Origin: Betaproteobacteria bacterium
GTDB lineage: Bacteria > Pseudomonadota > Gammaproteobacteria > Burkholderiales > Rhodocyclaceae
Assembly: GCA_016709965.1 (NCBI GenBank)
Contig: JADJLT010000003.1
Span: forward strand, 48,005 to 112,004
DNA: 64,000 nt
Direction: 5' to 3'
Positions 1 to 63,536 of this stretch are shown here, piece after piece. The first letter of the stretch is position 1. Every line of letters starts with the position of its first letter. The position numbers and the translations under genes were made by a program. The notes under the pieces were generated by a model. It was not told the DNA's origin, made no database searches, and worked only from the letters and a program-made list of their open reading frames with translations.

Positions 1-3000
1 CTACTATCAGGCTGCCTCCCTGTGTCAGGGCGCCAAGCGTGCCCGTAGCCGAGAATAGGTCCTGGGCGTTGGTGCCGCCGTTGCGCGTGAGCGTCAGCGT
101 CGCACCATTAAAATTGTTGGCGGCACTGAGTTCCGCGTCGGTGATGGTGACATCGGCATCGAGCACGACCGCCGCAGCATTCTCGGTATAAGTCGGCGTG
201 CCGTTGAGGTTGGAGAAGAACGGTGCATCATTGACCGGGGTGATGCTGACGGCCACCGTATCGGTGTCGGTCATCGTCATGTCGCTGGCGAGGGTGGCGA
301 TTTCGATAGCGCTGAGCGCGCGATTGTAAACGCGCGCTTCGTCGATCAGTCCTTGGAAGTTGAAGTTTGGCTGGCCATTCCCGTGGGTGCCGATGAAGGT
401 TGTGGTGCCCTGCGTGTAGCTGATCGAATCGGCCGTGCTGATCTGGGCGACCAGGGTGCCGTCGAGATACAAGGCCGTCGCATTGGCTGTGTCATTGAAG
501 CTAAATGCTACATGGTGCCAGCCAGTGCCGGCCAGGACGGTATTGTAGGAGGTGCCAACCCAGGTGATGCCGTTGTAATACCCGCCGATCATGGCTCCGC
601 CAGCATCGAGGCGCAGCAAAACATTGTCACCCAGAGAGATGACTTCGGCACCGGACGTATCGGCAGCGGTCAAGTTAACCCAGGCAGCAATGGTCACGTT
701 GGCTGGTGCGCCGAAAGTGCCGGTAATCTGCAGGTTGCTGTTGGCGGTGCCGTCCAGTGACACAACCTTGCCGCGCGTCCCGTCTACGACGCTCGTGGCT
801 CCGACCACAGCGGCCATGTTGCCGGCTGCCGGACTGCTGTCATTGCCCAGGAAGGCGCTGTCGAAGGTGTAATGGCCGAGGAGGCTGGTGTCAATGTCCA
901 GACTCAATAGTACGGCGTCCTTGGTTGCCAGAGTTAGCGTGGCGTTGCCGTTGTAGTTGGCGGTCGGGCTGTAGCTCAGGCCATTGAGCGCGGTATTGAT
1001 CGCGCTGGCGGTGCCGCGGAAGGTCATTGTCGCGTCGCTGCTGCCATCGCCGCTGACAAATGTCAGTCCGCCGGTGCTGGCCAGAGTCAGTGTGCCGTTG
1101 GTGACGCTGAGCGTAACTTGATTGTTTACTCCGCCGGCGTCTATATCCGTGATTGAGATCGCATTGCCGTTGGCAGAGGAAAATACCGTGGCGGTGTCCT
1201 CGTTGGTGCTTTGAGCACCCGGCACGCTGTTGACTGGTGGATCGTTAACCGCAGTCACGCTGACATCGACGACATCGGTGGCGCTGGAAAAGGCGGAGGA
1301 GCCGCCATTGGTCGAAGTCGTCACCTTGGTCCCGGCCGTGCCGCTGGTCTGATCCCAGGCGCGAAGAGTAAGGGCCGAAGAGGAAGAACCGTTGTAGTTG
1401 GCGGCCGGCGAGAAATACAGGCGCGTACTGGCGTTGTTGGCGAGCAGTAGCGACGAGGTGGCGTTGACTGTGCCGACAGTCGTCCAGTTGGTGCCACCGT
1501 TGGTGGTGTAGTACCAGCTGCCATTGGTCTCATTGCTGGCGACCAGGGCAATGCCATTCACGGCACCGCTATCCACATCGCTGATGCCGCCGGTGAAGGC
1601 GCTGAGCAGTGAGACGACTGCCCCGGATGGCACGCCGGCATCCTCAGCGACGGTCAGGGAAAGTGCGGTGTCGGCGAGAATTGGGGCGTCGTTGACGGCA
1701 GTGACATTGAAGGTAAAGGTGTTGGGTGTCGGATCGAGATCGACACCGCCATTGCTGGTGCCGCCGTCGTCCTGAACCTGGAAGGTGAAACTGGCATAGG
1801 CAGCGCCATTCGCATTCGCGACCGGCATGAAAACCAGCTTGCTGGCCGCGATGTCGGCGGCGGTGATCGTCTGGCCTGCGGTCACTGCCGCGCCGGATAG
1901 CGTCAGGCTGCCTGCCGTTGGCAGGGTCGAGATCTTTACAGCGAGAAGATTGTTGGCCGGACTGTCGCTAGGGTCTGAGAAGCCAAAATCTGCGGTGCTG
2001 AATATGTGGCTCGCATCCTCCAGAATCGTTTGCGTTTTGTTGGTGCCGCTTGGCGCGTTATTTGGCGCAACCGCAGTGACATTCTGCGCGAATTCGGAGG
2101 TGTCAGTAAAAGTTGTATAGCTGGCGTTGGCCTTGGTTGCAGTGGCGGAGACGTACTGGCCTGCCGCGACCGAGACCGATAATGTAGTATTGAACGTTGC
2201 GTTGCCGCTGCCGTTGGTGTTTACATTGGCGTAACCGAGATAGGTCCGACCTTCGCCGTATCCGGTGCCATCCGCCGACGAATTTGAGAAAAACTCGATG
2301 CGGTAGTAACCGGAGGCAGTGCTGTTGAGTGAGCCGGCAATGACAATCGTGCTGCCATTTGTCGTCGCGCCAATTAGCGCCGGGAAGTTCTGCAGGTTGT
2401 TGGCGCCGCTATCTGCGTCGCCAGCATCGTTGGTCGTGACCCCATTATTGCCGAGGTCTATCCCCAAACCCGTATTGCCGTAGATCGAATTCGTGAGAAT
2501 CTGGATGTTGCCCGGATCCGCCAAGACCGCAACACCCGCGCCCGTGTTGCCGGCGATGGTGTTGCCCTGGCTTGCGCCGGTGCCGCCAATAAGTACGTTG
2601 CTCGAACCGCCCGCCTCGAAGATGCCGGCGGTGGATGCTCCGCCGCCATTACCCAAGGTGACCGTCCCCGTGGCGTCCAGACCGATGATGTTGCCCTGGA
2701 TCGTGGCACCGTTGGCATACAGATAGATGCCACCTCTGGAAGCGCTCCAACTGGTGTTGGTGTTGCCAGAGATCACGTTGTTCAGGATGCTGGTGTTGGA
2801 AGCGGCATAGTCGATTACCACGCCGAAACCACCGTTTGACACCGCTGCCGTACCAGCCGCATTGGTGCCCAGGTAATTGCCCTGGATAATGTTGTTGGTG
2901 GTGGCGCCAGCTTGGGCTGAGACGATCACCCCGTACTGCGTATTGCCCGAGATGACGTTGCGAGCAGCAGCGGTAGCACCGCCAATGGTATTGCCTGAGG

Positions 3001-5521
3001 CGCCGGTATCAATCATTACGCCGGTTTCGCCATTGGCGATGGCGGCGGTGCCGGCAGCGTTGACGCCGATGTAGTTGCCGGCGACGGTGTTGCCGGTGGC
3101 TGATGCGCTGGTGATTTCGACGCCGGAAAGACCATTGCCGGAGATGATATTGCGCGAACCGGCGCTGGTGCCGCCCACGGTATTGTTTGCCGAGGCGAGA
3201 GCAATACCCAGCCCGGAATTGGCAATGGCTCCGGTGCCGGTCGCGTTGGTGCCGATGTAGTTGCCGAGGATGAGGTTGCCGGTGGCCCCCGCGCCACTGA
3301 CGTTGATACCGTCGAAGCTGTTGCCGGAGATGATGTTTCGGCTGGCGGCGGTGGTCCCGCCGATCGTATTGTTGGCGGAACTGGCGATGACGATACCGAA
3401 ACGGTTGGCAGCGGCTGCCGTACCGGCGGCATTGGTGCCGATATAGTTGCCCTCGATAAGGTTACCGCCACCGGTGATCATATAGATGCCGTAGTGGCCG
3501 AAATTTTCAATTACCAAGCCGCGCACGGTGCTGCCACCTACGGTAATGCTCAGACCATCCGCCGAATTCGGGGCATTGATGCCATTGATGACGATCAGCG
3601 GTGTGCCGGCATAGCCCGGCTGAGTCCAGCCGTCGATCACGACTGCATTGGTGATGCCGGGCAGGGCCGTTGCGCCGAGCGTGATCGTCTGCACGCCGCC
3701 ACCTGCGATATTGAAGGCGATGACATCCGCCCCGCCCGAGCCATTGGCGGTATTGTTTGCCGCAGTGATTGCTTCGCGCAGACTGATCTTTCCGTCGGCG
3801 CCCTTGTTGGCCATGAGGCTGGCAATACTGGTGACCGTGCCGTCGACCGTATCGCTCGCTGTGTCGACGTAAAGCGTGTTGATCGTGTCGTTGTCAGTAT
3901 TGCTCAGACTGATGTCGCTGGCATTTAGCCCGTTGTAGCTTGCGTCGGCGCTGCTCGCTGCAGCGGTGATGACACTGTAGGCGATGTTGCCATCGATAAA
4001 ACTGTCATCGACACCGGTCACGGTGACTGTTTGCGGTGTGCTCCAATTGGCTGTCGTGAAGGTCAGGCTGCTGGTTGACAGCGTACCTTCGCTGCTGTCG
4101 GAGGAGCTCAGGGCAATCGTGACATTCGCCGTTGGGGCCTTGTCGAGAACCACGTTAAAGGTGGCCGTGCCGCCGGCTTCGGTCGTGGTCAGTCCACTGG
4201 TGGGGGTGACGGTGATGCCAGCTGCAGTCTTCATTGACACCGCAGCGATTTCCCATTGCACTGATCCACTCAGATTGCTGCTCATCACGACGCTGGCGGC
4301 GCCTGCTTCAAGAGTGGCGCCGCCACCCATCGTGCTGTTGGTTTGCGACCAGTATGAAGTTTGCCCTGCACCGGGGGTAGCACTGGTGGCTGGACTGTTT
4401 CTCCAATACAAAACGTCTATGACCTGTTCACCGGCGGCACTGGATGCAGTCACTGAAGCGGTGGTGCCGGTCCCCGTTGCGCTGACGAAGGTGCCGAATG
4501 CAGTGCCTATGGTCTGGGCAACGCCATTGAACGTGCTTGCACCGCCAGCAGCGGCGGTTGTCCCTGAAAATGACGCCACCACATTGGCCGTTCCGACAGT
4601 GGGGTTGATCAGCGCCCAGAGTTCGACCGCATGATTGCCCGTGCCGCGACCGATCTGGGTAAGGGCGACACCGCCGTAGGTAACCGAGGAAGCCGGTGCG
4701 CCCAGTCCGTCGAGGGCGAGCTCGACAACCAGTACCCGGTTGCTGCCGGCGCTGACAGTGTGGGACCAGGTGAGGCTGGTGGCGCCGGTTGTCTGGGTGG
4801 ATGTGACGGTGCCATTGCTGGTGATGGCCAGCGTGCCAGCCCACTGGGTTGGTTCGGTAGTGCCAGCAACGCTCTGTGTTTCGATGCTGCCAAATTTGTA
4901 TTCGAACTGCCAGTTGCCGCCTTGCGCGGCATTGCCGGTCTTGTCCGAACTCGCGGCAACGTCAGCGCCGGTCAGTGCGCCCAGGCGGGCGACGAAGGCT
5001 TGTCCGTCAGCCGTGCTGGCAACATCGCAACCGTAGAGCAGGAGGTCGGCATTGCCATTGAGGGCCGTTTGCCAACCCTGGATTTGAGCGGCGCGAGTAG
5101 TCAGCATCGCACCGTCTAGCTGAGTCGTGCCCAGCTGCAGCGTGCCGGCGCTGCCGTGCGAGATGATGTGGATGGCGTCGAGGTCATCGCGGCTGGCCAG
5201 TGCTGCGCTAATCTGGTCGATACCGTCGCGGCTGGCATCGATCAGTACGACATCGAGTTTGTTTTTTCCGGCGGCAGCTTCGATATCGCTGACCAGGGTT
5301 TCCCAGTGGTCGACACTGGTGTCGACGAATACGATTCCGCGCCGAGCGGCCTCGATCTGGCTGCTTTCCGCCAGATTGCTGAGGTTTGCGTTGTTCGTCG
5401 GTGCAATCTGGCGAACCTCGGCGGTGTCGAGCAGATGGGCGCCGGTCAGGGTGGCGAGGTCAGCCGAGAAGAGAATGCGCGGTTCCAGTTCCTCGACAAC
5501 CGGCCGGTGGCGCCGACTCAT
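1..5521 (-). CDS. Giant secreted repeat protein: DUF4347-type N-terminal head, Ig/cadherin-like modules, right-handed beta-helix (PbH1) block, LamG-like lectin domain. The 3' end lies outside the window; more than 1840 aa are visible.
   Basis: The complement ATG at 5521 gives MSRRHRPVVEELEPRILFSADL, the LEPRILFSA signature of DUF4347 heads. The frame (first codon base = 1 mod 3) contains none of the listed minus ORFs and spot translations at several sites found no stop; it is absent from the ORF track, which fits a frame with no stop in the window. Hand translation shows GNYIGTNAAGTAA..NNTIGG..RNIISGN coils, VNDAP module junctions, and LLGHYTFDSAFLGND ... NVTIAAWVNL (LamG-like) near 300-900. 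Confidence 0.85.
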   Translation of the reverse strand, partial: MSRRHRPVVEELEPRILFSADLATLTGAHLLDTAEVRQIAPTNNANLSNLAESSQIEAARRGIVFVDTSVDHWETLVSDIEAAAGKNKLDVVLIDASRDGIDQISAALASRDDLDAIHIISHGSAGTLQLGTTQLDGAMLTTRAAQIQGWQTALNGNADLLLYGCDVASTADGQAFVARLGALTGADVAASSDKTGNAAQGGNWQFEYKFGSIETQSVAGTTEPTQWAGTLAITSNGTVTSTQTTGATSLTWSHTVSAGSNRVLVVELALDGLGAPASSVTYGGVALTQIGRGTGNHAVELWALINPTVGTANVVASFSGTTAAAGGASTFNGVAQTIGTAFGTFVSATGTGTTASVTASSAAGEQVIDVLYWRNSPATSATPGAGQTSYWSQTNSTMGGGATLEAGAASVVMSSNLSGSVQWEIAAVSMKTAAGITVTPTSGLTTTEAGGTATFNVVLDKAPTANVTIALSSSDSSEGTLSTSSLTFTTANWSTPQTVTVTGVDDSFIDGNIAYSVITAAASSADASYNGLNASDISLSNTDNDTINTLYVDTASDTVDGTVTSIASLMANKGADGKISLREAITAANNTANGSGGADVIAFNIAGGGVQTITLGATALPGITNAVVIDGWTQPGYAGTPLIVINGINAPNSADGLSITVGGSTVRGLVIENFGHYGIYMITGGGNLIEGNYIGTNAAGTAAAANRFGIVIASSANNTIGGTTAASRNIISGNSFDGINVSGAGATGNLILGNYIGTNATGTGAIANSGLGIALASANNTVGGTSAGSRNIISGNGLSGVEITSASATGNTVAGNYIGVNAAGTAAIANGETGVMIDTGASGNTIGGATAAARNVISGNTQYGVIVSAQAGATTNNIIQGNYLGTNAAGTAAVSNGGFGVVIDYAASNTSILNNVISGNTNTSWSASRGGIYLYANGATIQGNIIGLDATGTVTLGNGGGASTAGIFEAGGSSNVLIGGTGASQGNTIAGNTGAGVAVLADPGNIQILTNSIYGNTGLGIDLGNNGVTTNDAGDADSGANNLQNFPALIGATTNGSTIVIAGSLNSTASGYYRIEFFSNSSADGTGYGEGRTYLGYANVNTNGSGNATFNTTLSVSVAAGQYVSATATKANASYTTFTDTSEFAQNVTAVAPNNAPSGTNKTQTILEDASHIFSTADFGFSDPSDSPANNLLAVKISTLPTAGSLTLSGAAVTAGQTITAADIAASKLVFMPVANANGAAYASFTFQVQDDGGTSNGGVDLDPTPNTFTFNVTAVNDAPILADTALSLTVAEDAGVPSGAVVSLLSAFTGGISDVDSGAVNGIALVASNETNGSWYYTTNGGTNWTTVGTVNATSSLLLANNASTRLYFSPAANYNGSSSSALTLRAWDQTSGTAGTKVTTSTNGGSSAFSSATDVVDVSVTAVNDPPVNSVPGAQSTNEDTATVFSSANGNAISITDIDAGGVNNQVTLSVTNGTLTLASTGGLTFVSGDGSSDATMTFRGTASAINTALNGLSYSPTANYNGNATLTLATKDAVLLSLDIDTSLLGHYTFDSAFLGNDSSPAAGNMAAVVGATSVVDGTRGKVVSLDGTANSNLQITGTFGAPANVTIAAWVNLTAADTSGAEVISLGDNVLLRLDAGGAMIGGYYNGITWVGTSYNTVLAGTGWHHVAFSFNDTANATALYLDGTLVAQISTADSISYTQGTTTFIGTHGNGQPNFNFQGLIDEARVYNRALSAIEIATLASDMTMTDTDTVAVSITPVNDAPFFSNLNGTPTYTENAAAVVLDADVTITDAELSAANNFNGATLTLTRNGGTNAQDLFSATGTLGALTQGGSLIV
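2440..3660 (-). repeat. Coding tandem periodicity of about 186 bp (62 aa, two beta-helix coils) inside the giant protein
   Basis: Three consecutive plus-strand shadow ORFs (2877-3074, 3075-3260, 3261-3446) are 186-198 bp and have near-identical starts. The minus-frame translation repeats GNYIG(T/V)NA.GT...N..G..I....NNTIGG....RN.ISGN. Confidence 0.6.
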
Positions 5522-5603
5522 GCTGAGGCCCGTTTCTGCTGGTCAGCCCGGCGCTCGCCGTTGATCAGGGCGAGCGGCTTTGAGGCGCGTCGCTCTCCAT
5601 CGC

Positions 5604-6962
5604 TCACAGCAGGGTGCGCTCCTGAACAATCAGCCAGCGTCCGGCTTGCTTGCGCCAGAGCAGTGCCTTGTGGACGGTTTCGGTGAAATCTCCGGCCTGG
5701 TAGTGCTGCTCGAAGGTGGTCTTAACCTCGTTGGGCGTCGGGCTCGTGGTTTGGAGTTGCTCGATGCTCAGCGTGATCGGCTCGGGCCGTGCCAGGCGCT
5801 GCTGCCGTTCTTCGGCCCATACTTCCCGGCTGGGGTGGTGCGTTGGTTGGAAGTTGCCGGCATAAAAGGCGAGATAGCGCTCGACCTGTTTACTCGCCCA
5901 GGCTTTGCGCCATTGTTCGACCAGTTCACTGACGGCTTCGCCCGGCGACTTGCTGGTGGCCTTGGCGAGAGGTTTGCTGGCTGGCGGCGCCGATTTGAGC
6001 GCCGGCTTGGGGCTTGTATCGCTGGCCTTGGGCGGTGCAACAGCCGGGACGGAAATTTCCGGTTTTGGCTCTTTTTTCGGGTTGACCGCAGCAATGGCTG
6101 GCGAGGCTGCTGTCAGTGGTGGATTCGTCGCGCTGGCACTGATTTTTGCGAAATCAGCCTTGCAGCGCAGGCCGGCGGGTAGTGTGTGCGTCGGGTTGTC
6201 GAGGCGGAGCAGGGTGCGGAAGGTGTTGCTGGCCGGATCGATGACCTTGTCGACACGGGTGACCTGGGCGCGGACAGTGCCAGCCCCCGGCAGTTCGGGC
6301 TGAATGGAGGCGCTGTCGCCGGGTGCGATCTGGCCGTAGAGGCTGATGGGAACGACCACCTGAACACGCAGCGGGTCAATTTGTGCCACGCGCAGGATTG
6401 CTTTTTCCTCGACGCGTTCGCCCGGGGCCAGGTAGCGTTCGGTGACGACGCCGTCAAAGGGGCTGATGATCGAGCGCTGACTCAGCAGAGCGCGCGAGTA
6501 GTCCACTTCATTGCTGGCGACGCGGCGGTTTTCACGCGCTTGTTCCAATTTCTGGCGAGTAACTTCGGCATCGGCGCGGCTTTGGTCCAGGGCGTTGTGC
6601 GAAATGAAGTTCCGCTTGAACAGGTCTTCGTTGCGCGCCAGTTGCTGGGCAGAAAATCGGGCGGCGGCTTCGGCGGCGTGAACCTCGCCCTCCGCTTCTT
6701 GCCGCGCCTTGGCCAGAGCGACGGCTGCGCGCTCGGATTGCGCTTTGAGGACGGCCAGAACCTGGCCTTTCTTGACCATGTCGCCACGTTCGACGGGAAT
6801 GGATTCGATAATGCCCACGACCTGACTGCCGATATCAGCCGTCCGCTCGGCCTCAATCAGGCAGCCCAGCGGCTGCGCCGCGTGGGCGCTGCCGACAACC
6901 AAGGCGACAAGACCGAAAAGCTGCAGCGCTCGGCGACGCAGGTGGTCTGGTGGCGAAATCAT
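5604..6962 (-). CDS. Periplasmic adaptor (MFP/HlyD-RND adaptor family) fused through a Pro/Lys/Ala-rich linker to a C-terminal NTF2/SnoaL-like (Cds6-type) domain
   Basis: 452-aa ORF with a signal-like N-terminus, LQLFGLVALVVGSAHA. Adaptor motifs: GQVLAVL, coiled-coil segment, IISPFDGVVTERY, RVQVVVP. The linker is aa ~270-335. The C-terminal module reads WRKAWASKQVERYLAFYAGNF...GRWLIVQE. Confidence 0.8.
   Translation of the reverse strand: MISPPDHLRRRALQLFGLVALVVGSAHAAQPLGCLIEAERTADIGSQVVGIIESIPVERGDMVKKGQVLAVLKAQSERAAVALAKARQEAEGEVHAAEAAARFSAQQLARNEDLFKRNFISHNALDQSRADAEVTRQKLEQARENRRVASNEVDYSRALLSQRSIISPFDGVVTERYLAPGERVEEKAILRVAQIDPLRVQVVVPISLYGQIAPGDSASIQPELPGAGTVRAQVTRVDKVIDPASNTFRTLLRLDNPTHTLPAGLRCKADFAKISASATNPPLTAASPAIAAVNPKKEPKPEISVPAVAPPKASDTSPKPALKSAPPASKPLAKATSKSPGEAVSELVEQWRKAWASKQVERYLAFYAGNFQPTHHPSREVWAEERQQRLARPEPITLSIEQLQTTSPTPNEVKTTFEQHYQAGDFTETVHKALLWRKQAGRWLIVQERTLL
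6055..6095 (-). repeat. Dispersed CGGTCAAC/A-tract repeat, copy c5, in-frame inside the adaptor linker
   Basis: The minus strand reads ATTGCTGCGGTCAACCCGAAAAAAGAGCCAAAACCGGAAAT, nearly identical to intergenic copy c2. It is translated as IAAVNPKKEPKPEI. Confidence 0.8.
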
Positions 6963-9127: not shown

Positions 9128-11301
9128 CGAGACGTGCTTGGGCTGGCTGGCATCATCGGTGGCGCGCCACTGAACTGCTTGAGGAAAACCTGCGCGATCC
9201 GACGATAAAGCTGCGTGGCCAGCGGCGCATAGCCGTGGTCGAAGCGCACCCAGGCTCGTTCGCCGACATGCTTCAGCTCATCGTCGGCCAGTTTCAAGTC
9301 GACCAGAAAGACAGATTCTTGCAAACGCCGGCCATTTTCGTCACGTGGATCAGTCAGGTAAGGTCCGCCGCCACGGTCGCCGAGTGCCGCGCTGGGCAAT
9401 TCGCGGCTGGCGGCCGGGGTGTCGGCCTGAACGCTTGCCGCCAACGGCCGGCCGGGCATTTCAGGCAGGCGTACCTCGGCCGATCGGGTGTGCTGCTGAA
9501 CGAGGGAAATATCCTTCTCCGGCACGGCCGCGCGAATCACTGCCAAGCCATCGGCCAGCACATAGCCCATGGGCTCGCCATTGCGAATGAAACGGCCGGG
9601 CAGGTCGGTCTGTCGGGGCATCACCAGGCGGCCATCGACCCGGGCGCGGATCTCGAGGTCGCCGAGTTTGGCTTGGGCGCGGGCCAGTTCGGCTTCGGTC
9701 TTCTCGATGACTTCGGCCTGATTCTGGGCACCCTCGGGATCCCTGAGAAGCAGGCGGTAACGTTCGGCTTGCAAGCCGATCAGGCGGCTTTCAAGTTTTT
9801 CCTGTTGTACCTGTAGCTCGGGATTCTCGAGGCGGACAATCAGCTCGCCAATGTGGACCTGGCTACCATCCTTGACCGGCAACTCACTGACGAAGCCATC
9901 CACCTCGGGGCGAATCTGCGCCTTGTCCGGCAACCAGACGATACCGGGAGCAACAGTGCTGTAGGGCAGCGGCAGTGCAAAGATCAGCAAGGCCGGAACC
10001 GCCAGCAAAACGGCCAGCCGGCGGCGCGTGCGCGCCATTTCGTTGCCTGGCGTTGCACTGGCCAGCGATTGGGTGAAGCCACGCCAAAGCGGCAGGGCGA
10101 TCATGGTTGCGGCGAAGTAGATGGCGGCCACGCCGGCGGCGAAGAGCCAGAGCCCGGCCAGCCAGAACAGAATGGTCAGCGTGATCAGCAGCCGGTACGC
10201 CAGGGAAAGCGGCGCGTAGGCCAGCAGCCATTTACGTTCGCCGTGGCCCATCTGCGGAGTTTCCGAGGGCAGGCGCAGGAGGTGCCGGTGCAACAGGTGG
10301 CGCCAGTAGGCATTGCTGCGTGAGGCAAGGTTGGGCAGGTCGAGGACGTCGCAGAGGACGTAGTAGCCATCAAAGCGGAGCAACGGATTTCCGTTGAAGA
10401 GCAGTGTCGACAGGCTGCCGATAAAGAACAGCGCGAAGCCGATGTCGCGCATTGTTTCGCCACTGAGTTGCGACCAGATCAGCAGGCCGATGGCCGCGAT
10501 GAGCAGTTCGATCATGATGCCGGCAGCGCTGACCAGCGCGCGTTGCTGGCGGCCGAGAAAACCTGATGCGGCCGAGGCGTCGACATAGGGAGCCGGCATC
10601 AGGACGAGCAGCGCCACGCCTGCCTCATGCACGTCTCCACCCCAGCGACGTACGGCCAGCCCGTGCCCGGTTTCATGGAGCGCCTTGATGAGGGGAAAGG
10701 TCAGCCAGAGCAGGCCGAGATAGGCGGGTGAGTGAAGGCGAGTCGAACCGAACGCAAAAAGTTCGCGCCACTCGCCGGCCGCCGACAAGGCTGCGAACCC
10801 GATGAGCAGCAGCCAGAGCCAGAAGGTGACGGGCTGAAACAGCAGTTTGCCCAAGCCGTCCAGACGCGCCAGCAGCGCGTTCGGGTCGCCCAACGGTAGC
10901 CGGAAGGCCAGCGGATTGACGAGGCTGCGCAGGCGTCGCTGCCTTGATTCGTCGCGGCGCTGGAAGAGGCTGTCGACATCGGGAATGCGGTCGAATTGAA
11001 TGAGCTCTGCTTCGTTCAGGCTGACCAGCAGATCGACCACTTCATCCTGCGTCGAGGCGTCATCGGCATGCATCTGAAGCACGCCGTCCCAGACTTGTTG
11101 TACGTTGCGCAGGCCGTTGCAGCGGCCGATGAAGTGGTAGGCGGCATCGTTGATCCGGTGATGGCGGCCGCTGGCTTCGTCGGTCAGGACGAACCAGCGC
11201 TGGTCGCGCCAGCGCTTGCGCTGGATGCGGACTTGCGGGCGCAGGCGCGGCTTGAGGTCGGCGACTCGATACCAGCGCGCGCTGAACAGCGTCGCGGTCA
11301 C
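9124..11301 (-). CDS. Three-part membrane protein: N-terminal PqqD/RRE-like domain, polytopic M50 (site-2 protease) core, C-terminal HlyD-type periplasmic adaptor domain
   Basis: 725 aa. HETGH (HExxH) and NPLLRFDGYY (NPxxxxDG) lie in a hydrophobic core. The N-terminus FIGRCNGLRNVQQVWDGVL...DEVVDLLVSLNEAELI resembles PqqD-type peptide-binding domains. The C-terminal ~270 aa have a lipoyl-like hairpin plus coiled coil (VDGFVSEL...ELIVRLENPEL...ARVDGRLV). Confidence 0.8.
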   Translation of the reverse strand: MTATLFSARWYRVADLKPRLRPQVRIQRKRWRDQRWFVLTDEASGRHHRINDAAYHFIGRCNGLRNVQQVWDGVLQMHADDASTQDEVVDLLVSLNEAELIQFDRIPDVDSLFQRRDESRQRRLRSLVNPLAFRLPLGDPNALLARLDGLGKLLFQPVTFWLWLLLIGFAALSAAGEWRELFAFGSTRLHSPAYLGLLWLTFPLIKALHETGHGLAVRRWGGDVHEAGVALLVLMPAPYVDASAASGFLGRQQRALVSAAGIMIELLIAAIGLLIWSQLSGETMRDIGFALFFIGSLSTLLFNGNPLLRFDGYYVLCDVLDLPNLASRSNAYWRHLLHRHLLRLPSETPQMGHGERKWLLAYAPLSLAYRLLITLTILFWLAGLWLFAAGVAAIYFAATMIALPLWRGFTQSLASATPGNEMARTRRRLAVLLAVPALLIFALPLPYSTVAPGIVWLPDKAQIRPEVDGFVSELPVKDGSQVHIGELIVRLENPELQVQQEKLESRLIGLQAERYRLLLRDPEGAQNQAEVIEKTEAELARAQAKLGDLEIRARVDGRLVMPRQTDLPGRFIRNGEPMGYVLADGLAVIRAAVPEKDISLVQQHTRSAEVRLPEMPGRPLAASVQADTPAASRELPSAALGDRGGGPYLTDPRDENGRRLQESVFLVDLKLADDELKHVGERAWVRFDHGYAPLATQLYRRIAQVFLKQFSGAPPMMPASPSTSR

Positions 11302-56917: not shown

Positions 56918-56950
56918 TTCTAAACGCCCATTCTTTGTTTGGGGTGTTTC

Positions 56951-58153
56951 ATGGAAACGTATCAATCCAGCAGTAATGTGTTGTTCATCTTATTGGGCGC
57001 CATCATGGTGCTCGCCATGCACGCCGGTTTTGCCTTCCTCGAAGTGGGCACGGTCCGCAAGAAAAATCAGGTCAACGCCTTAGTCAAGATTCTGAGTGAT
57101 TTTGGAATCTCGACGGTTGCCTACTTCTTCGTTGGCTACAGCATTGCCTACGGCGTCAATTTTTTCTCTGGCGTTGAAACATTGATGGAAAAAAATGGAT
57201 ATGAACTGACCAAATTTTTCTTTCTGCTGACTTTTGCGGCCGCTATTCCGGCGATTATTTCCGGCGGAATAGCCGAGCGGGCCAAGTTCAATCCGCAATT
57301 GATAGCCACTTTTCTGCTGGTCGGTTTTGTCTATCCTTTTTATGAAGGTATCGCCTGGAATCAGGCATTCGGCATCCAGGCCTGGCTGAAGGCAAGCTTT
57401 GGCGAAGAGTTTCATGATTTCGCCGGTTCGGTTGTGGTTCACGCCATGGGCGGCTGGATTGCACTGCCTGCGGTTCTTCTGCTCGGCGCACGTTACGGCC
57501 GCTATAGCAAGGATGGCCGGATCTCGGCGCATCCGCCATCATCGATTCCCTTTTTGGCGCTGGGTGCCTGGATTCTGACTGTCGGCTGGTTCGGATTCAA
57601 TGTCATGAGCGCTCAGACCCTCGACAAGATATCCGGTCTAGTGGCCTTGAATTCCTTGATGGCCATGGTCGGCGGTACGCTGGTTGCGCTGGTCGCCGGG
57701 AAAAATGACCCGGGCTTTCTGCATAACGGCCCTTTGGCGGGCCTGGTCGCGGTCTGTGCCGGCTCCGATTTAATGCACCCAATTGGGGCGTTGGTCGTCG
57801 GTGGTGTGGCGGGGGCTCTCTTCGTGGGTATGTTCACCTTGGTGCAGAATCGCTGGAAAATTGATGACGTGCTCGGCGTCTGGCCGCTGCATGGCATGTG
57901 CGGTGCTTGGGGCGGGATAGCCGCAGGAGTCTTCGGCAGCAAGGCCTTGGGAGGTGCGGGCGGTATTGCCTTCATGCCGCAACTGATCATGACGGCGTTG
58001 GCGATCCTGGTTGCCCTGATCGGTGGCACCCTCGTTTATGGCGTGCTCAAGGCAACCTTGGGCCTACGCCTGGATCAGGACGAAGAATACGATGGGGCAG
58101 ATATCAGCATCCATAGAATTACCTCCACGCCGGAGCGCGAGCCAAACTGGTAA
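56951..58153 (+). CDS. amt: Ammonium transporter
   Basis: Multi-TM protein. FAFLEVG, DFAGS.VVH..GG, GVWPLHG.CG.WG. ATG at 56951. Confidence 0.9.
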   Translation: METYQSSSNVLFILLGAIMVLAMHAGFAFLEVGTVRKKNQVNALVKILSDFGISTVAYFFVGYSIAYGVNFFSGVETLMEKNGYELTKFFFLLTFAAAIPAIISGGIAERAKFNPQLIATFLLVGFVYPFYEGIAWNQAFGIQAWLKASFGEEFHDFAGSVVVHAMGGWIALPAVLLLGARYGRYSKDGRISAHPPSSIPFLALGAWILTVGWFGFNVMSAQTLDKISGLVALNSLMAMVGGTLVALVAGKNDPGFLHNGPLAGLVAVCAGSDLMHPIGALVVGGVAGALFVGMFTLVQNRWKIDDVLGVWPLHGMCGAWGGIAAGVFGSKALGGAGGIAFMPQLIMTALAILVALIGGTLVYGVLKATLGLRLDQDEEYDGADISIHRITSTPEREPNW

Positions 58154-58220
58154 TTGACGTTGATCGCAATAAATAAAGTCTGTCGGAGTGTAATAAAGTC
58201 GGTCGGACAGAACTTAGTGA

Positions 58221-58247
58221 AGCCCCGCCATTGTGCGGGGCTTTTTG
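58221..58247 (+). terminator. Rho-independent terminator after amt
   Basis: AGCCCCGC-CATTGT-GCGGGGCT-TTTTG. Confidence 0.7.
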
Positions 58248-58262
58248 CTGATGGGCCTCCGG

Positions 58263-59360
58263 CTAAAACACATAGGCTTCAGCCAAACTTTTCTGAATCA
58301 GTTCCCGGTTGTACGAGTAGATGGGCTGAAGCTCTTTGGCAATATCTGCGGCAAGTTCCTCAACTTCCGCTTTCAAAAGGCGCAGCCCTTCGAATTTATC
58401 AGGGGAGTCAAACACTTTTCTTGACATGTCCGGAACGTCGATCATTTTTGCCTGTGCCGAATTGGCCTCAAGGTACTGCAAATAGGCGAGTATTTCCCCA
58501 ACTAGAGACAGCTCAAGATAGTAGGGTTTATTCAGCGCTTGGCTATCGAGGTTCCACACAATCGACGCAATGTCGTAACTGCTCAATTTGATGTCTTTTG
58601 ATGAATCTCTCTTGAGGTTTTTAAGTAACCGAATAACCTTTTTTGTTCCGCCATTGGTTAGGGACTCCTTGTCCTGAATTTTTTGCATGTGGAGGAAAGG
58701 TCTGTTGGCGATAAGCTTTTTCTCAAACTTGTCCAGAATGCGAATTTCACGATCGTGTTTTTCTCGTGATATCTGATATGCCGCCGAGTCATGCCAATGA
58801 CTCGGAACGACATCGATTTTTCGTTGCAATGAGCCACCTGATACACAAATAGACTTGGCTCCTGATTTATCTACCTTGGCCGAAGGAAATTTCTGGTCAA
58901 GAATCGATTCGCAACGGCTGCGGAGCGCAACCATCTCATCTAGAACAGTGCCTGACAACGTTACGTAGGTAGATGCTTTGCATCCTGTCCAGTCTACCGT
59001 GACAAAACCGCCGTGAAGTACGAGCAGATCAATGTCACTCGTACGACGGATGTGGATATCGAGAGGCACAGATCCTTGGTACTCAAAATAGGCAGGAATT
59101 CCAAGCGTTTGGAGACCTGCGTCGAGTTGTTTCTTAACGCGATCGCCTTCCTGGATGCTGACCTCGGTGTATTTTGCGTCGAGTGCTTGCATCGCACCTA
59201 ACGCATACTTGATGGCCTCTGTTTTTCCGCGGGTTTCATATGCTTCAGTTAGCGATTTATGTAGTGATGCGCTGTCGAAGGCGGCAGATAGTGCCGCGCT
59301 GGCATCAAGGCCAAGCCGGCGACTGCGCATATTCGCCAGTTTTTGGGTGTAATTAGACAT
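58263..59360 (-). CDS. CD-NTase / SMODS-type nucleotidyltransferase (CBASS cyclase candidate)
   Basis: Pol-beta NTase signature GSVPLDIHIRRTSDIDLLVL plus a third acidic site KIDVVPS, then an all-helical C-terminal half. 365 aa from the ATG at 59360, preceded by AAGGAG at 7 nt. Local GC is visibly lower than the flanks. Confidence 0.65.
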   Translation of the reverse strand: MSNYTQKLANMRSRRLGLDASAALSAAFDSASLHKSLTEAYETRGKTEAIKYALGAMQALDAKYTEVSIQEGDRVKKQLDAGLQTLGIPAYFEYQGSVPLDIHIRRTSDIDLLVLHGGFVTVDWTGCKASTYVTLSGTVLDEMVALRSRCESILDQKFPSAKVDKSGAKSICVSGGSLQRKIDVVPSHWHDSAAYQISREKHDREIRILDKFEKKLIANRPFLHMQKIQDKESLTNGGTKKVIRLLKNLKRDSSKDIKLSSYDIASIVWNLDSQALNKPYYLELSLVGEILAYLQYLEANSAQAKMIDVPDMSRKVFDSPDKFEGLRLLKAEVEELAADIAKELQPIYSYNRELIQKSLAEAYVF

Positions 59361-59859
59361 TCGCTGGCTCCTTGCGGACAAGTTTCATGCGGCCAAAAGT
59401 TACCCGACCACGATTGTTGAAATAGTTTCCTTCCGCCGTGCTCAAACTCTCATCAAGTTGCAGCTCACAGTAACCCACGTGCGTTCGAAGCTCGGGCTCT
59501 CCTATCTTTGGCTCGTTTTGATAGCTATACATCAGTACATATCCTCGCCCAGGTTCTCGCACTAATGCTGCAGATTTGCTTCTGGAGCACGATTGACCTG
59601 TGTTGAGGTAGATCCTGATTCTTTCCCAAGTCTGATTGATCGTGACCTTGGCGTTCCAGTGGTATGTCACACAGCCATCCTCGCCTATGGTTTCACCTTC
59701 GCATTCCCAAACGCCATTCAAGTCTGGAATGCCTAGTAGTGATTGAACGAATTTCCGTCGCCAAATCCACTTATCAAATGAGGCATGGCCAATCAAGTAA
59801 AAAGTTGCCGCATTTAGCGGAACCAGAACAACGTTTGTTTCACTAGTAGGCAGCCCGAG
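59353..59859 (-). pseudogene. Cap15-like (SMODS-associated 2TM beta-strand-rich) effector, 5'-truncated at the IS21 left end
   Basis: Beta-barrel pattern LNGVWECEG...VTINQTWERIRIYLNTGQSCSRSKSAAL...YVLMYSYQNEP...HVGYCELQL...EGNYFNNRGRVTFGRMKLVRK. The frame stays open upstream of the TTG at 59796 (..NVVLVPLNAATFYLIGHASF) right up to the IS end at 59860. No start codon and no first TM helix are present. Confidence 0.55.
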
Positions 59860-59886
59860 TGTTGACGCTCGTTGAAAACTGACCAG
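59860..59886 (+). repeat. IS21 left terminal inverted repeat
   Basis: TGTTGACGCTCGTTGAAAACTGACCAG. A second internal copy of GAAAATTGACCAG lies at about 59908-59920. Confidence 0.75.
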
Positions 59887-59964
59887 AAAAGCGAGGTTGT
59901 GCGCGCTGAAAATTGACCAGGGTGATTAACTAGTCCGCTCATTTTTTGAGCAGGATTTTAGGAG

Positions 59965-61396
59965 ATGATCACCATGAAGGATCTGGGAAGGATTCGGCGG
60001 TTGTTTTACCGGGATGGCGTGTCGCTATCCGAGATTTCGAGGAAGACGGGGTATAGCCGGAACACCGTCAAGCGTTGGTTACGGACGCCGGAAGGCACGG
60101 AGCCGAAGTACGAACGGGAGAACCCGAACGTCAAGATTGCGCCCTATGCGGCGCGACTCATCAAGGCGCTGGAAACGGATGCTCGGCGCCCGAAACGGGA
60201 TCGGCGTACGGCGCTGAAACTCTTTGGTGAATTGCAGGCGGCCGGATTTACGGGCACCTACTGCCGGGTCACTGAGTTCATCCGGCGCTGGCGTTCCGAT
60301 GGTGGCGCGGCGGTCAGCAAAGCCTTCGTTCCGCTCCACTTTGAATTAGGCGAAGCCTTCCAGTTCGACTGGAGCGAAGAGCATTTGGTGATCGGTGGTG
60401 TCTGGCGCAAGATTCTCGCCTCGCATCTGAAGTTCTGTGCCAGTCGGGCCTTTGTGGTTCAGGCCTACCCGACGCAAGGCCACGAAATGCTGTTTGATGC
60501 CCATACCCGTTCGTTTGCGGCCTTGGGCGGCATTCCTCGGCGCGGCATCTACGACAATATGAAGACGGCCGTGGATAAGGTGCAGAAGGGCAAGTCCCGT
60601 ATCGTCAATGCCCGCTTCTCGGCCATGGCCTCCCACTACCTGTTCGACCCGGATTTCTGCAATGTCGCCAGCGGCTGGGAGAAAGGCGTTGTCGAGAAGA
60701 ATGTCCAGGATAGCCGGCTGCGGCTCTGGCAGGATGCCGGCAAGGAACGCTTCAGCTCTTTCACCGAACTGAACGTCTGGCTGCTCGAACGCTGCCGTAG
60801 CCTGTGGCAGGAATTGCGCCATCCTGAGTACGCGGATCTGACGGTGGCCGAGATGCTGGAACACGAGCAACCGAGCCTGATGCCAATGGTGGCGCCCTTC
60901 GATGGTTATGTTGGAAACCCTGGGCAAAGTCTCCAGCACCTGCCTAGTCACGCTGGATCGTAATCGCTATTCGGTGCCGTGCGAGTTGGTCGGCCAGGTC
61001 GTTAGCCTGCGTCTCTATCCGGAGCGGATTGATATGGTGGCGCACGATCTGCGCATGGCCAGCCATCCGCGTAGTTTCACCCGGCAACAAACGCTCTACG
61101 ACTGGCAGCACTACATTCCGCTGATTGAACGCAAGCCGGGTGCCTTGAGAAATGGCGCGCCATTTGCCGACATGCCGGAAGCTTTGCAGCGCCTGCGCAG
61201 TTTGTTGCTGCGTCGAGAAGGTGGTGATCGGGTCATGGCCAAGGTCCTGTCAGCGATTGCGCAGTTCGGTCTGGAGTCTGTGCTGGTGGCGGTCGATCTG
61301 GTTCTGGAATCAGGCTTGCCCAGTGCCGAGCACGTCGAGAACATGCTCAATCGACTGAAGTCTGGACCCATGCCACCACCGGTGGAGACCCGCTGA
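59965..61396 (+). pseudogene. istA: IS21 transposase IstA, split by a +1 frameshift near 60913
   Basis: The 332-aa ORF (HTH GVSLSEISRKTGYSRNTVKRWL, DDE region) ends shortly after ..MVAPFDGYV. The 164-aa ORF continues as (V)ETLGKVSSTCLVTLDRNRYSVP in the +1 frame. Removing one G from GTTGGAAAC restores a single ORF of about 477 aa. The likely true start is the ATG at 59974. Confidence 0.8.
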
Positions 61397-61462
61397 CGAT
61401 CAGCGAAGCACCGATCGCCGATACGGGTCGCTACGACCAGCTGCGCGTGGAGGTGAGCGACC

Positions 61463-62209
61463 ATGCGTGAGCTGATGAGTGAGTTCAAGGAGCTGCGCCT
61501 GCACGGCATGGCTGGTGCCTGGGAAGAGCTATCGGCCAACGGTGGCGCCGGCATCGACACTTCTCGCTGGTTGATCGAGCATCTGCTGCAGGCCGAACAT
61601 ACTGACCGGGTCATGCGCTCGATTGGCTACCAGATGCATGCGGCCCGCTTCCCTGTACATCGGGATCTAGCGGGATTCGACTTCGATCAATCGAAGGTAG
61701 ATCAGAAACTGATTCGGCAACTGGCCGACCTGTCCTTTACCGAGGAAGCGCAGAACGTGGTGTTCATCGGTGGCACGGGAACCGGCAAGACGCACCTGGC
61801 CACGGCACTGGGTGTTTCGGGGATTGGGCACCATAACAAGCGGGTTCGGTTCTTCTCGACGGTGGATCTGGCCAATGCCCTGGAACAAGAGAAGGCGGCC
61901 GGCAAAGCTGGCCGGATTGCCTTGGGACTGCTGCGCATGGATCTGGTGATTCTCGATGAGCTGGGCTATCTGCCGTTCAGCCAGGCTGGTGGTGCCTTGC
62001 TGTTTCACTTGCTGTCGAAGCTCTACGAGCACACCAGCGTGATGATCACGACCAACCTGACCTTTGCCGCCGTCCTCCACGGCTTCCCCAACGCATTCAT
62101 CGTGGCTCGGAAATCGGTTGTTCTGAGCTACACTTATCCACAAGCCAACCTATGTCAGGTGGCTATCACACCTGGTCAAAATTCAACGAGCACAGGTGGT
62201 CAAAATTAA
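61463..62209 (+). CDS. istB: IS21 helper ATPase IstB, with an atypical C-terminus
   Basis: Walker A GGTGTGKTHLA, Walker B LVILDELGYLP, ITTNL. The last ~45 aa do not match the EW...LDRL.HH...SYR tail I expect for IstB, and the ORF stops inside the right IR. Confidence 0.75.
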   Translation: MRELMSEFKELRLHGMAGAWEELSANGGAGIDTSRWLIEHLLQAEHTDRVMRSIGYQMHAARFPVHRDLAGFDFDQSKVDQKLIRQLADLSFTEEAQNVVFIGGTGTGKTHLATALGVSGIGHHNKRVRFFSTVDLANALEQEKAAGKAGRIALGLLRMDLVILDELGYLPFSQAGGALLFHLLSKLYEHTSVMITTNLTFAAVLHGFPNAFIVARKSVVLSYTYPQANLCQVAITPGQNSTSTGGQN

Positions 62210-62222
62210 ACGCGCGCCGACA
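62196..62222 (-). repeat. IS21 right terminal inverted repeat
   Basis: The complement reads TGTCGGCGCGCGTTTAATTTTGACCAC. A second internal copy (CTGGTCAAAATTC) lies at about 62172-62184. Confidence 0.75.
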
Positions 62223-62492
62223 GTTGATAGCTGACAGTTGGTGGGCGAGGACCAATCGTTGGATCTGGCTGACTACCTGCCTGTACGATCTGATCAGAAG
62301 TCGCTTTAACGATGTGTTACCGACTACATTTTTTGTCCCAATCGGGAGTGGCTTTAGTAGAGGCCTTGTTACGGACAGAGAGGTTTTTTTAGTGCGCTCA
62401 CGACGCTTGATTTCTCGTGTTCAGCTGTTACGGACTTTGTTAGTAAGATCAGACGATGATGGGGATGGCGTATTGAGTCTGTCCGGTAGCGC

Positions 62493-62528
62493 AAAAAAGG
62501 GAGCAGGGTTGCTCCCTTTTTTGTTTTT
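62493..62528 (+). terminator. Orphan rho-independent terminator in the non-coding stretch right of the IS
   Basis: AAAAAA-GGGAGC-AGGGTT-GCTCCC-TTTTTTGTTTTTG. No convincing upstream plus-strand gene remains. Confidence 0.55.
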
Positions 62529-62672
62529 GTCTCGCGCGGAACCGAACGGTTCCCGAAATGATTGGTTACCAAATGTCGCAGAACATAGCTTGAAAGCACG
62601 ACAGGCAATTCATATCTTGGACACCAAGGAGATTCCATGAACGGTAGCTCCAATAAACGTCTGGAGGCTTGA

Positions 62673-63536
62673 ATGAAAAAGATCATCTTTGCTTTTATCG
62701 TGTTTGCCTCTGTCGGCTTTTGTCTGCCGACATTTGCTTCCGAGCCCTCACTTCATGAGGTGTATCAAGCGGCTGGTGCTGGTAAAGTGAATGATGCCCA
62801 ACGAATGATGCGTGAAGTTTTACAGGCGCATCCAAACAGCGGAAAGGCGCATTATGTTGAAGCCGAATTGCTGGCGAAACAAGGGCTGTTGAAACAGGCG
62901 GCAAATGAACTGGAGACAGCGGAAAAACTTGCGCCAGGTTTGCCATTTGCAAATGGGCAATCTGTTTCCCGTCTCAAAGACAGTCTGGTTTCCCACAAAG
63001 TAACCGCTGCTTCAGGGCTACCGGTTCAGCGTGCAGTTTCTCCTGCAGCGTCGGAAACGAATTCGAACCCTCCGTGGGGAATTTTGTTCATCGGATTAGG
63101 GCTTATAGCTTTTATTGTGTGGGCAACCAAATTCATGGGGCGCCGTAATTCCACCAACAATGGTGGTGCAGATCAACCAGCATTTGGTGGTTATCGTCCG
63201 GCTTATCCTTCATCGCCAAATGGTGGCGTTGCACAGGGCTATGGTGCAACGGGTGTTCTACCGGTCGCCGGCCAGGGGATTGGTTCGCAAATGTTGGGTG
63301 GCTTGGCGACAGGTGCTGCTGTTGGGGCTGGAGTCGTCGCCGGCGAGGCATTGATGCATCGTTTCATGGATGGGCACAAAACTGTACCGGCCAGTGACCA
63401 GGCATTCTCCAGTTTTGACAGTATCCCCAATTTGCCGTCGACACCGCTGGACGATATGGGTGGTAACGACTTCGGTATTGCAGATAGTTCTTCCTGGGAT
63501 GATGGTGCTTCCAGTGCCGATAGCGACTGGAACTAA
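62673..63536 (+). CDS. Secreted or membrane protein with an N-terminal TPR-like domain, one TM helix, and a Gly-rich segment with an acidic tail
   Basis: Signal peptide FIVFASVGFCLPTFA. TPR-like HPNSGKAHYVEAELLAKQGLLKQAANELETAEKLAP. TM WGILFIGLGLIAFIVWA. Gly-rich GGLATGAAVGAGVVAG. GGAGG lies 5 nt before the ATG. Confidence 0.6.
   Translation: MKKIIFAFIVFASVGFCLPTFASEPSLHEVYQAAGAGKVNDAQRMMREVLQAHPNSGKAHYVEAELLAKQGLLKQAANELETAEKLAPGLPFANGQSVSRLKDSLVSHKVTAASGLPVQRAVSPAASETNSNPPWGILFIGLGLIAFIVWATKFMGRRNSTNNGGADQPAFGGYRPAYPSSPNGGVAQGYGATGVLPVAGQGIGSQMLGGLATGAAVGAGVVAGEALMHRFMDGHKTVPASDQAFSSFDSIPNLPSTPLDDMGGNDFGIADSSSWDDGASSADSDWN

Follow-up and report, generated by a model that had tools for sequence, protein, structure and literature searches.

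Does the overlapping gene pair just downstream of the ammonium transporter gene amtB in a Rhodocyclaceae genome still amount to an anti-phage defence, or is it what remains of one? The question is raised by a 64,000-nucleotide (nt) stretch of a Betaproteobacteria bacterium (GenBank assembly GCA_016709965.1, contig JADJLT010000003.1, positions 48,005 to 112,004), here called the window, in which two overlapping minus-strand open reading frames (ORFs) span 58263-59859. An earlier note on this DNA read them as a minimal type I cyclic-oligonucleotide-based anti-phage signalling system (CBASS), consisting of a cyclase and a Cap15-like effector beheaded by an IS21 insertion sequence (IS), in a probably decaying islet more AT-rich than its flanks. 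Both ORFs are present in the ORF list at these positions, and the contrast in composition is real, with a GC content of 0.44-0.515 over 58200-59800 vs 0.57-0.60 on each flank. The analysis supports a related but larger reading, to which we assign a probability of roughly 85%, that the locus is the 3' part, now inactive, of a CdnE-Cap15 CBASS cassette with CapW-type regulation and is dead as a defence module. From amtB to the far end of the islet, the features are as follows:

56939-58153, plus strand: amtB, ammonium transporter, chromosomal flank (Pfam Ammonium_transp, E 1.3e-88)
58157-58262, no strand: amtB-proximal islet end, with an end motif and a hairpin (99% identical in related loci L017 and L002)
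[quoted passage not shown]
59353-59859, minus strand: cap15 remnant, codons 46-212 and stop codon of a 212-aa Cap15 (Pfam, PADLOC, homologue P0001, PDB 7n34)
59860-62222, plus strand: defective IS21-family element (Pfam IstB_IS21 and HTH/rve/Mu-transpos_C_2; terminal repeats)
62223-62452, no strand: distal 230-nt islet remnant, inside the segment skipped by an empty-site allele that joins 58156 to 62453

The cyclase gene is complete. The ORF list offers an alternative 372-aa reading from an upstream TTG, but the ATG at 59360, which gives the 365-aa product, is taken as the correct start because homologues begin MxNYTQKLANM, and an AAGGAG Shine-Dalgarno sequence lies 7 nt upstream of it. The product was described in the earlier note as a Pol-beta-type CD-NTase, and this is borne out by an intact set of catalytic motifs (G96-S97, D109-I-D111 and D183, of which the GS and DxD align with PDB structure 6wt9) and by a full-length match to the PADLOC CBASS oligonucleotide-cyclase model PDLC00772 (E 2.5e-137). 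A local Pfam scan returned just a chance match (DUF5473, E 0.16) and the NCBIfam matches fell far below cutoff, so that the protein was placed by the PADLOC and PDB searches; the Pfam family CD_NTase_C is listed, as a precomputed annotation, for an identical protein in the assembly collection. Its closest solved structures are all CdnE, namely 6wt9 (4.9e-28), 6wt8 (a STING-associated CdnE) and 7x4c (EfCdnE), and on the strength of these three sequence matches the enzyme is probably a CdnE-like member of clade E. With the catalytic residues in place and similarity to both model and structures, Cdn is predicted to be a CBASS CD-NTase; the refuting outcome named in the earlier note, grouping with MNT or antibiotic nucleotidyltransferases, did not occur, the matches being to the CBASS cyclase hidden Markov models (HMMs) and the CdnE crystal structures. 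The only named-genome match to the cap15-cdn pair is in Azonexus hydrophilus, at 69% amino-acid identity.

The upstream ORF, whose stop codon overlaps the cyclase ATG by 8 nt (ATGTCTAA), was rightly recognised as a fragment of a Cap15/S-2TM-beta effector. The Pfam family Cap15_CD_rec matches the remnant over profile positions 3-122 of 122 (7.7e-37), the PADLOC '2TM effector' model covers it at positions 48-208 of 209, and residues 77-208 of the closest intact homologue (P0001; 212 aa, 96% identity, within a set of intact homologues that are 96-97% identical) align to the Cap15 structure 7n34 (1.3e-31), with all of these residues encoded in the window. The remnant is therefore predicted to retain a Cap15-type beta-barrel cyclic-dinucleotide receptor. 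Published work describes Cap15 as two transmembrane (TM) helices joined to a beta-barrel, with killing dependent on oligomerisation in the membrane (PMC10419184), and for the Cap15/S-2TM-beta family a two-pass TM element is described that is 'obligately fused' (PMC12657218). The possibility that the fragment belongs to a family naturally without TM helices was checked and does not apply, as more than 60 full-length homologues from the database search (209-214 aa) all carry both Cap15_TM and Cap15_CD_rec.

Comparison with the intact homologues also sizes the missing 5' segment, as had been proposed, at 45 codons (133-135 nt). The remnant joins P0001 at residue 46 (…GLPTSETNVV…), and residues 1-45, comprising the first TM helix (TM1, at about 19-40 by hydropathy) and the start codon, are lost together with the promoter. 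The DNA for the full receptor and for all of the second helix (TM2) is still there, contrary to the statement that only part of one hydrophobic segment remains, and the Cap15_TM profile matches the remnant over its last 26 positions only (34-59 of 59). With TM1 absent, the product would lack the two N-terminal helices of the family. It is correct that the frame is open without a start codon up to the IS end, since no ATG, GTG or TTG lies upstream of the TTG at 59796, and the frame remains open past 59859 into the IS. That TTG (residue 66), the sole canonical start, opens the 147-aa ORF at 59353-59796, and translation from it would drop most of TM2 as well.

Translation from this internal TTG is the basis of one alternative, in which the remnant is made as a soluble beta-barrel that acts as a cyclic-dinucleotide sponge or regulator. 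The open frame allows it, and residues 77-208, the whole barrel, are preserved with few substitutions. For the remnant as a whole, dN/dS (the ratio of non-synonymous to synonymous substitution rates) is 0.16 against the intact allele L002, from nine synonymous and five non-synonymous differences, with most non-synonymous changes on the L002 side where outgroups are informative. No Shine-Dalgarno sequence precedes the TTG, however, gene prediction on metagenome contigs recovers no more than 59 aa of the remnant, no RNA contig from four metatranscriptomes covers 59645-59859 or crosses the IS/cap15 junction, and a promoter/terminator scan of 58100-60000 turned up nothing like a sigma-70 promoter on the minus strand. 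A soluble barrel is thus highly improbable. A different possibility concerns the identity of the pair, as S-2TM-beta effectors are also used by the inverse-signalling system Panoptes (PMC12657218), in which the OptS synthase, a minimal CRISPR polymerase (mCpol), is paired with an OptE effector of the same superfamily, likewise with a beta-barrel and a pair of TM helices. The synthase in the window is a 365-aa CD-NTase that fits CBASS cyclase HMMs and CdnE structures, not an mCpol with its Cas10 palm, and nothing suggests inverse signalling; that the two genes are a Panoptes-like or a non-defence nucleotidyltransferase pair instead of CBASS merits hardly any credence.

The left end of the IS, at 59860, has two independent supports, in that homology to intact cap15 stops at 59858/59859 and the sequences next to other IS copies part from the window immediately before 59860; the right end, 62222, is where the flanks of other copies diverge. 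The element carries IstB_IS21 (1.5e-64) and HTH/rve/Mu-transpos_C_2 matches in two istA pieces, and its ends are TG...CA, each with a terminal repeat in two copies (59860-59886 and 59898-59921; 62167-62190 and 62191-62222), so that istA followed by istB, the terminal dinucleotides and the multiple terminal repeats place it in the IS21 family. Its nearest annotated relative, a 2586-bp IS on plasmid JX194160 (87% identity), shares this organisation and has intact istA and istB. The window copy differs in having an istA frameshift caused by an extra base near 60913 (without which a continuous IstA of ~498 aa would be read), in lacking one C after 61388 that other copies have, in a 224-bp internal deletion at 62070 that removes the C-terminus of IstB (…EWPSVFGDAK…), and in having no target-site duplication, with flanks CCGAG vs GTTGA. 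These lesions are absent from the other metagenome copies and from the JX194160 element, and the copy has neither intact transposition genes nor a target-site duplication. For the two 1-nt indels an assembly error remains possible; in run X11, ~11x of a depth of 208x at 60913 departs from the consensus variant, a split compatible with a single-copy window variant at that position. The same IS21-family element is very abundant in these communities (depth 70-5000 vs 4-50 for the flanks) and is well represented in RNA contigs, and the window holds one defective copy only.

The beheading by an IS21 element is accurate in so far as the IS abuts cap15 codon 46, but it was not a simple insertion. The alignment of the window with the intact-allele contigs, L002 and L017, stops at 59858/59859, and the cap15 5' end and upstream genes, sought across the whole window by blastn and tblastn with L002, L017 and P0001, were not found; L002 1-1041 and L017 1-8132 match nothing anywhere in it. 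A simple insertion with the other half of cap15 to the right of the IS was rejected on this ground, there being no such half in the window. Because a target-site duplication and the upstream DNA are both missing, the event was an insertion combined with a deletion, either an adjacent deletion or recombination between two IS copies. What the unbroken sequence looks like is seen in metatranscriptome contig X26, which runs past 59859 directly into …VTLGLGAAQF, the intact allele. If the ancestor of the window resembled L017, at least 8 kb were lost; both this length and the identity of the lost cargo are estimates, since none of the fetched loci, L002 and L017 included, had a match to the distal 230 nt.

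The nature of the missing part can be approached through intact relatives, and here the 'minimal pair' of the earlier note is true of what is left but not of the system from which it derives. In about 14 independent loci, Cap15 and the CD-NTase are encoded by the last genes of a larger cassette, which starts with a divergent WYL/BrxR-type regulator directly upstream. The next component is a small gene, encoding either a soluble protein of 57 aa or one of 107-133 aa with hydrophobic segments, and directly upstream of cap15 in about 14 loci lies a gene for a 122-aa YdjM-like membrane protein (PF04307, E 4.3e-11; HRQFFHS motif), the stop codon of which overlaps or abuts the cap15 start. The cassette often also includes a 91-93-aa hydrophobic protein. 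The YdjM-like gene lies outside the window and was located in related loci at these positions:

L002, 532-900: YdjM-like gene
L017, 7624-7992: YdjM-like gene
L001, 4993-5361: YdjM-like gene
L005, 2822-3190: YdjM-like gene

The divergent WYL/BrxR-type arrangement has been described for CapW as associated with Cap15 systems (PMC9122588), and the intact relatives resemble these CapW-regulated CBASS in having such a gene directly upstream, unlike the window, from which the regulator has been deleted. L001 (Azonexus) and L009 have an M78 peptidase and helix-turn-helix (HTH) pair in place of the WYL gene, which by its motifs and Pfam matches appears to resemble CapP/CapH. Neither the window nor the cassettes in L001, L002, L003, L005, L007 and L017 showed any E1/E2/JAB or HORMA/TRIP13 genes, and the absence of the Cap2/Cap3 and HORMA/TRIP13 ancillaries is that of a type I CBASS. 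In L017, the islet of which is 98-99.5% identical to that of the window, a type I restriction-modification (R-M) system (hsdM and hsdR; 1606-5851) adjoins the WYL-CBASS cassette upstream of the WYL gene, and the ancestor of the window may also have lost an R-M system of this kind. The YdjM-like and small proteins match no PADLOC model, and no paper containing both 'YdjM' and 'CBASS' was found in the literature searched.

From published work on these families, the intact system would operate as a unit in which the divergent WYL repressor controls an operon for Cap15, the CD-NTase and, ahead of them, the small and the YdjM-like membrane proteins. When a phage infects, the cyclase would make a cyclic dinucleotide, the Cap15 beta-barrel would bind it and oligomerise, and the two N-terminal TM helices would disrupt the inner membrane, such that the infection is aborted. 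In the window, with an IS21-family element abutting cap15 codon 46, the DNA between the break point and the last 230 nt is gone, and with it TM1 and the start codon of the effector, the promoter, the regulator and the genes for the small and YdjM-like proteins; neighbouring defence genes were probably lost as well. Since Cap15 could not be made as a membrane protein, neither cell killing nor phage defence would be expected. The cyclase retains a ribosome-binding site, but the native promoter is missing, so it would be at best weakly expressed and would have no cognate effector. Judged by the truncated effector and the deleted promoter region, the locus is predicted not to function as CBASS, and its cyclase is probably left over from it, with weak expression or none.

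Several observations weigh against this reading of the locus. The cyclase has no stops, frameshifts or other decay, and compared with the intact L002 allele its dN/dS is 0.044 (42 synonymous and seven non-synonymous differences), so that the description of the islet as decaying holds for the truncated effector and does not extend to point-mutation decay. Contigs from bioreactor metatranscriptomes cover cdn and part of the cap15 remnant, patchily, at 2-6x and similar to amtB, and some expression of cdn is possible; these contigs are unstranded and may reflect DNA carry-over. The loss of defence is itself a prediction from sequence. An undecayed cyclase would also be expected if the truncation were simply recent, and the divergence from L002 probably largely predates the truncation and shows just that no decay has accumulated since.

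The same observations bear on the alternative that the cyclase is a functional orphan, expressed and supplying a cyclic dinucleotide to a different receptor or effector, encoded elsewhere in the genome or carried by a co-resident element. Its intact ORF and catalytic residues, its own AAGGAG ribosome-binding site, the signature of purifying selection, the patchy RNA contigs and the presence of an identical protein in many samples from 2013 to 2025 would all fit. That signature, however, comes from divergence that is probably mostly older than the truncation, and there are no cdn variants within the truncated lineage and hence no test of selection there. The native promoter and regulator are gone, and with no RNA contig crossing the junction, read-through from the IS is unsupported as a substitute. 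A second Cap15-like gene was not found in the window. A lesion of the reverse kind (a nonsense codon in cdn next to an intact cap15, in L017) argues for loss of the whole system and not for selective retention of the cyclase. An orphan cyclase kept at weak expression, perhaps with a soluble Cap15 barrel as nucleotide buffer and with its signal feeding another receptor, is therefore an unlikely outcome. If true, it would be a CBASS part heading to a new use rather than to loss.

The inactivated remnant, as it is preferred here, is not confined to one genome. The index of the assembly collection has the identical cyclase in 95 blocks, words from the islet are present in many wastewater and activated-sludge runs from 2013 to 2025, and the truncated allele is widespread in these populations. 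The same cap15/IS junction occurs in six metagenome contigs at 99.6-100% identity, each of which breaks 52-139 nt into the IS. Across the six there are no variants in cdn, one synonymous single-nucleotide polymorphism in the cap15 remnant and seven variants in amtB, and the truncated allele is therefore young and near-clonal. A 973-nt contig of X19 (depth 4.45) joins 59859 to 62225 and so carries the same truncation without the IS and 2 nt, at a TG microhomology, which is probably a near-precise loss of the IS. The opposite order, in which the IS-less allele is ancestral, was considered less likely, as 2 nt are missing from this allele in addition to the IS and it breaks exactly at the IS end.

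Other copies of the cassette are damaged in different places. The L017 nonsense codon lies at cdn K215 (KFEK*LIAN; about 9274-9276) and was read from a single contig of 3.6x coverage, so it may be a sequencing error. Apparent frameshifts in cap15 are seen in L026 and L028, in L031 all but the last 36 cap15 codons are gone, and L032 has neither cap15 nor cdn between the ydjM-like gene and a small downstream gene. Erosion of the cassette looks recurrent, with the qualification that for single contigs low-coverage assembly errors are possible. Collectively, the wastewater populations hold a natural series of alleles, from intact (L002), through nonsense-disrupted in cdn (L017), beheaded with the IS (the window) and truncated without it (X19), to empty (X20 and X19), which illustrates the acquisition of abortive-infection systems at a hotspot and their repeated inactivation afterwards.

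The empty allele defines the limits of the islet. DNA contigs of X20 and X19 join 58156 to 62453, which bounds the islet at about 58157-62452, with ACG on both sides, and the whole 4.3-kb segment is a presence/absence polymorphism in related wastewater strains. The islet starts a few nt after the amtB stop, at a junction shared with L017, L022 and L034. At about 58160-58210 there is a conserved end motif (TGATCGCAATAAATAAAGTCTGTCGGAG..AATAAAGTCGGTCGGA) with the pattern TGATCG.AATAAATAAAGTC.GTCGGAG…AATAAAGTC.GTCGGA. Next to it, at 58220-58247, a G+C hairpin that has a T-run faces amtB. A search of 57900-62900 against Rfam gave nothing above the gathering score, and motif and hairpin are no known RNA family. 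The sites of the motif are:

Window, 58157-58262 and 62425-62455: end motif
L034, 1985-2043 and about 16372: end motif
L022, about 6068-6157: end motif
L017, 9730-9835: end motif

The motif follows the amtB stop by a few nt in four lineages (the window, L017, L022 and L034), and in L022 and L034 it is kept despite far greater divergence of amtB and the CBASS genes. In L034 an inverted copy closes a 14.4-kb defence island with a helicase-nuclease, BrxR-CBASS, DUF2779 and GmrSD, and a TnsD fragment was called in L008, a contig equivalent to L034. At the distal end of the window islet (62425-62452), manual comparison gave a degenerate inverted copy with about 18/29 matches, and local alignment of the two islet ends gave a weak inverted repeat only, so the idea of terminal repeats is based mainly on L034 and the four-lineage alignment. 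The amtB flank of L017 is ~83-88% identical to that of the window, vs 98-99.5% for the islet. Because of the shared motif, the inverted copy in L034 and this contrast in identity between islet and flank, the window islet appears to be what is left of a mobile defence island that is bounded by repeats and inserts close behind amtB, on the 3' side of the gene. A contig of X5 diverges after 58160 into other sequence that still starts with a similar motif (GATCGTATAAATAAAGTCAG…), which suggests alternative cargo at the amtB hotspot.

Set against described systems, the locus is almost certainly an ordinary, inactivated member of the well-described CdnE-Cap15 CBASS family and represents known biology. 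It shares with the CdnE-Cap15 type I systems (Yersinia aleksiciae Cap15, 7n34/7n35; EfCdnE, ClCdnE and LpCdnE with Cap15) the beta-barrel receptor domain, a cyclase closest to CdnE, and adjacent, co-oriented genes with overlapping stop and start codons, and it is unlike them in that its effector has no TM1, start codon or promoter. Compared with these systems, the gene order in the subfamily of the window is effector then cyclase, and the intact relatives add the YdjM-like membrane protein and the small protein upstream in the same operon. The intact ancestral form points to a Cap15 CBASS variant that was not described in the literature searched, which would have an obligate YdjM-like membrane partner and a repeat-bounded island targeting the 3' end of amtB. 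The locus changes nothing fundamental and serves well to show how a CBASS erodes; specialist follow-up may be deserved by the genes for the YdjM-like and small proteins, which in this subfamily are conserved upstream of cap15 and coupled in translation, as well as by the conserved end motif that places islands a few nt after amtB in at least four lineages.

Just outside the islet, positions 62492-62523 contain an inverted repeat of 14 bp without mismatches, between runs of A and T (CAAAAAAGGGAGCA..TGCTCCCTTTTTTG); it looks like a bidirectional terminator, which would serve amtB in strains with the empty site.

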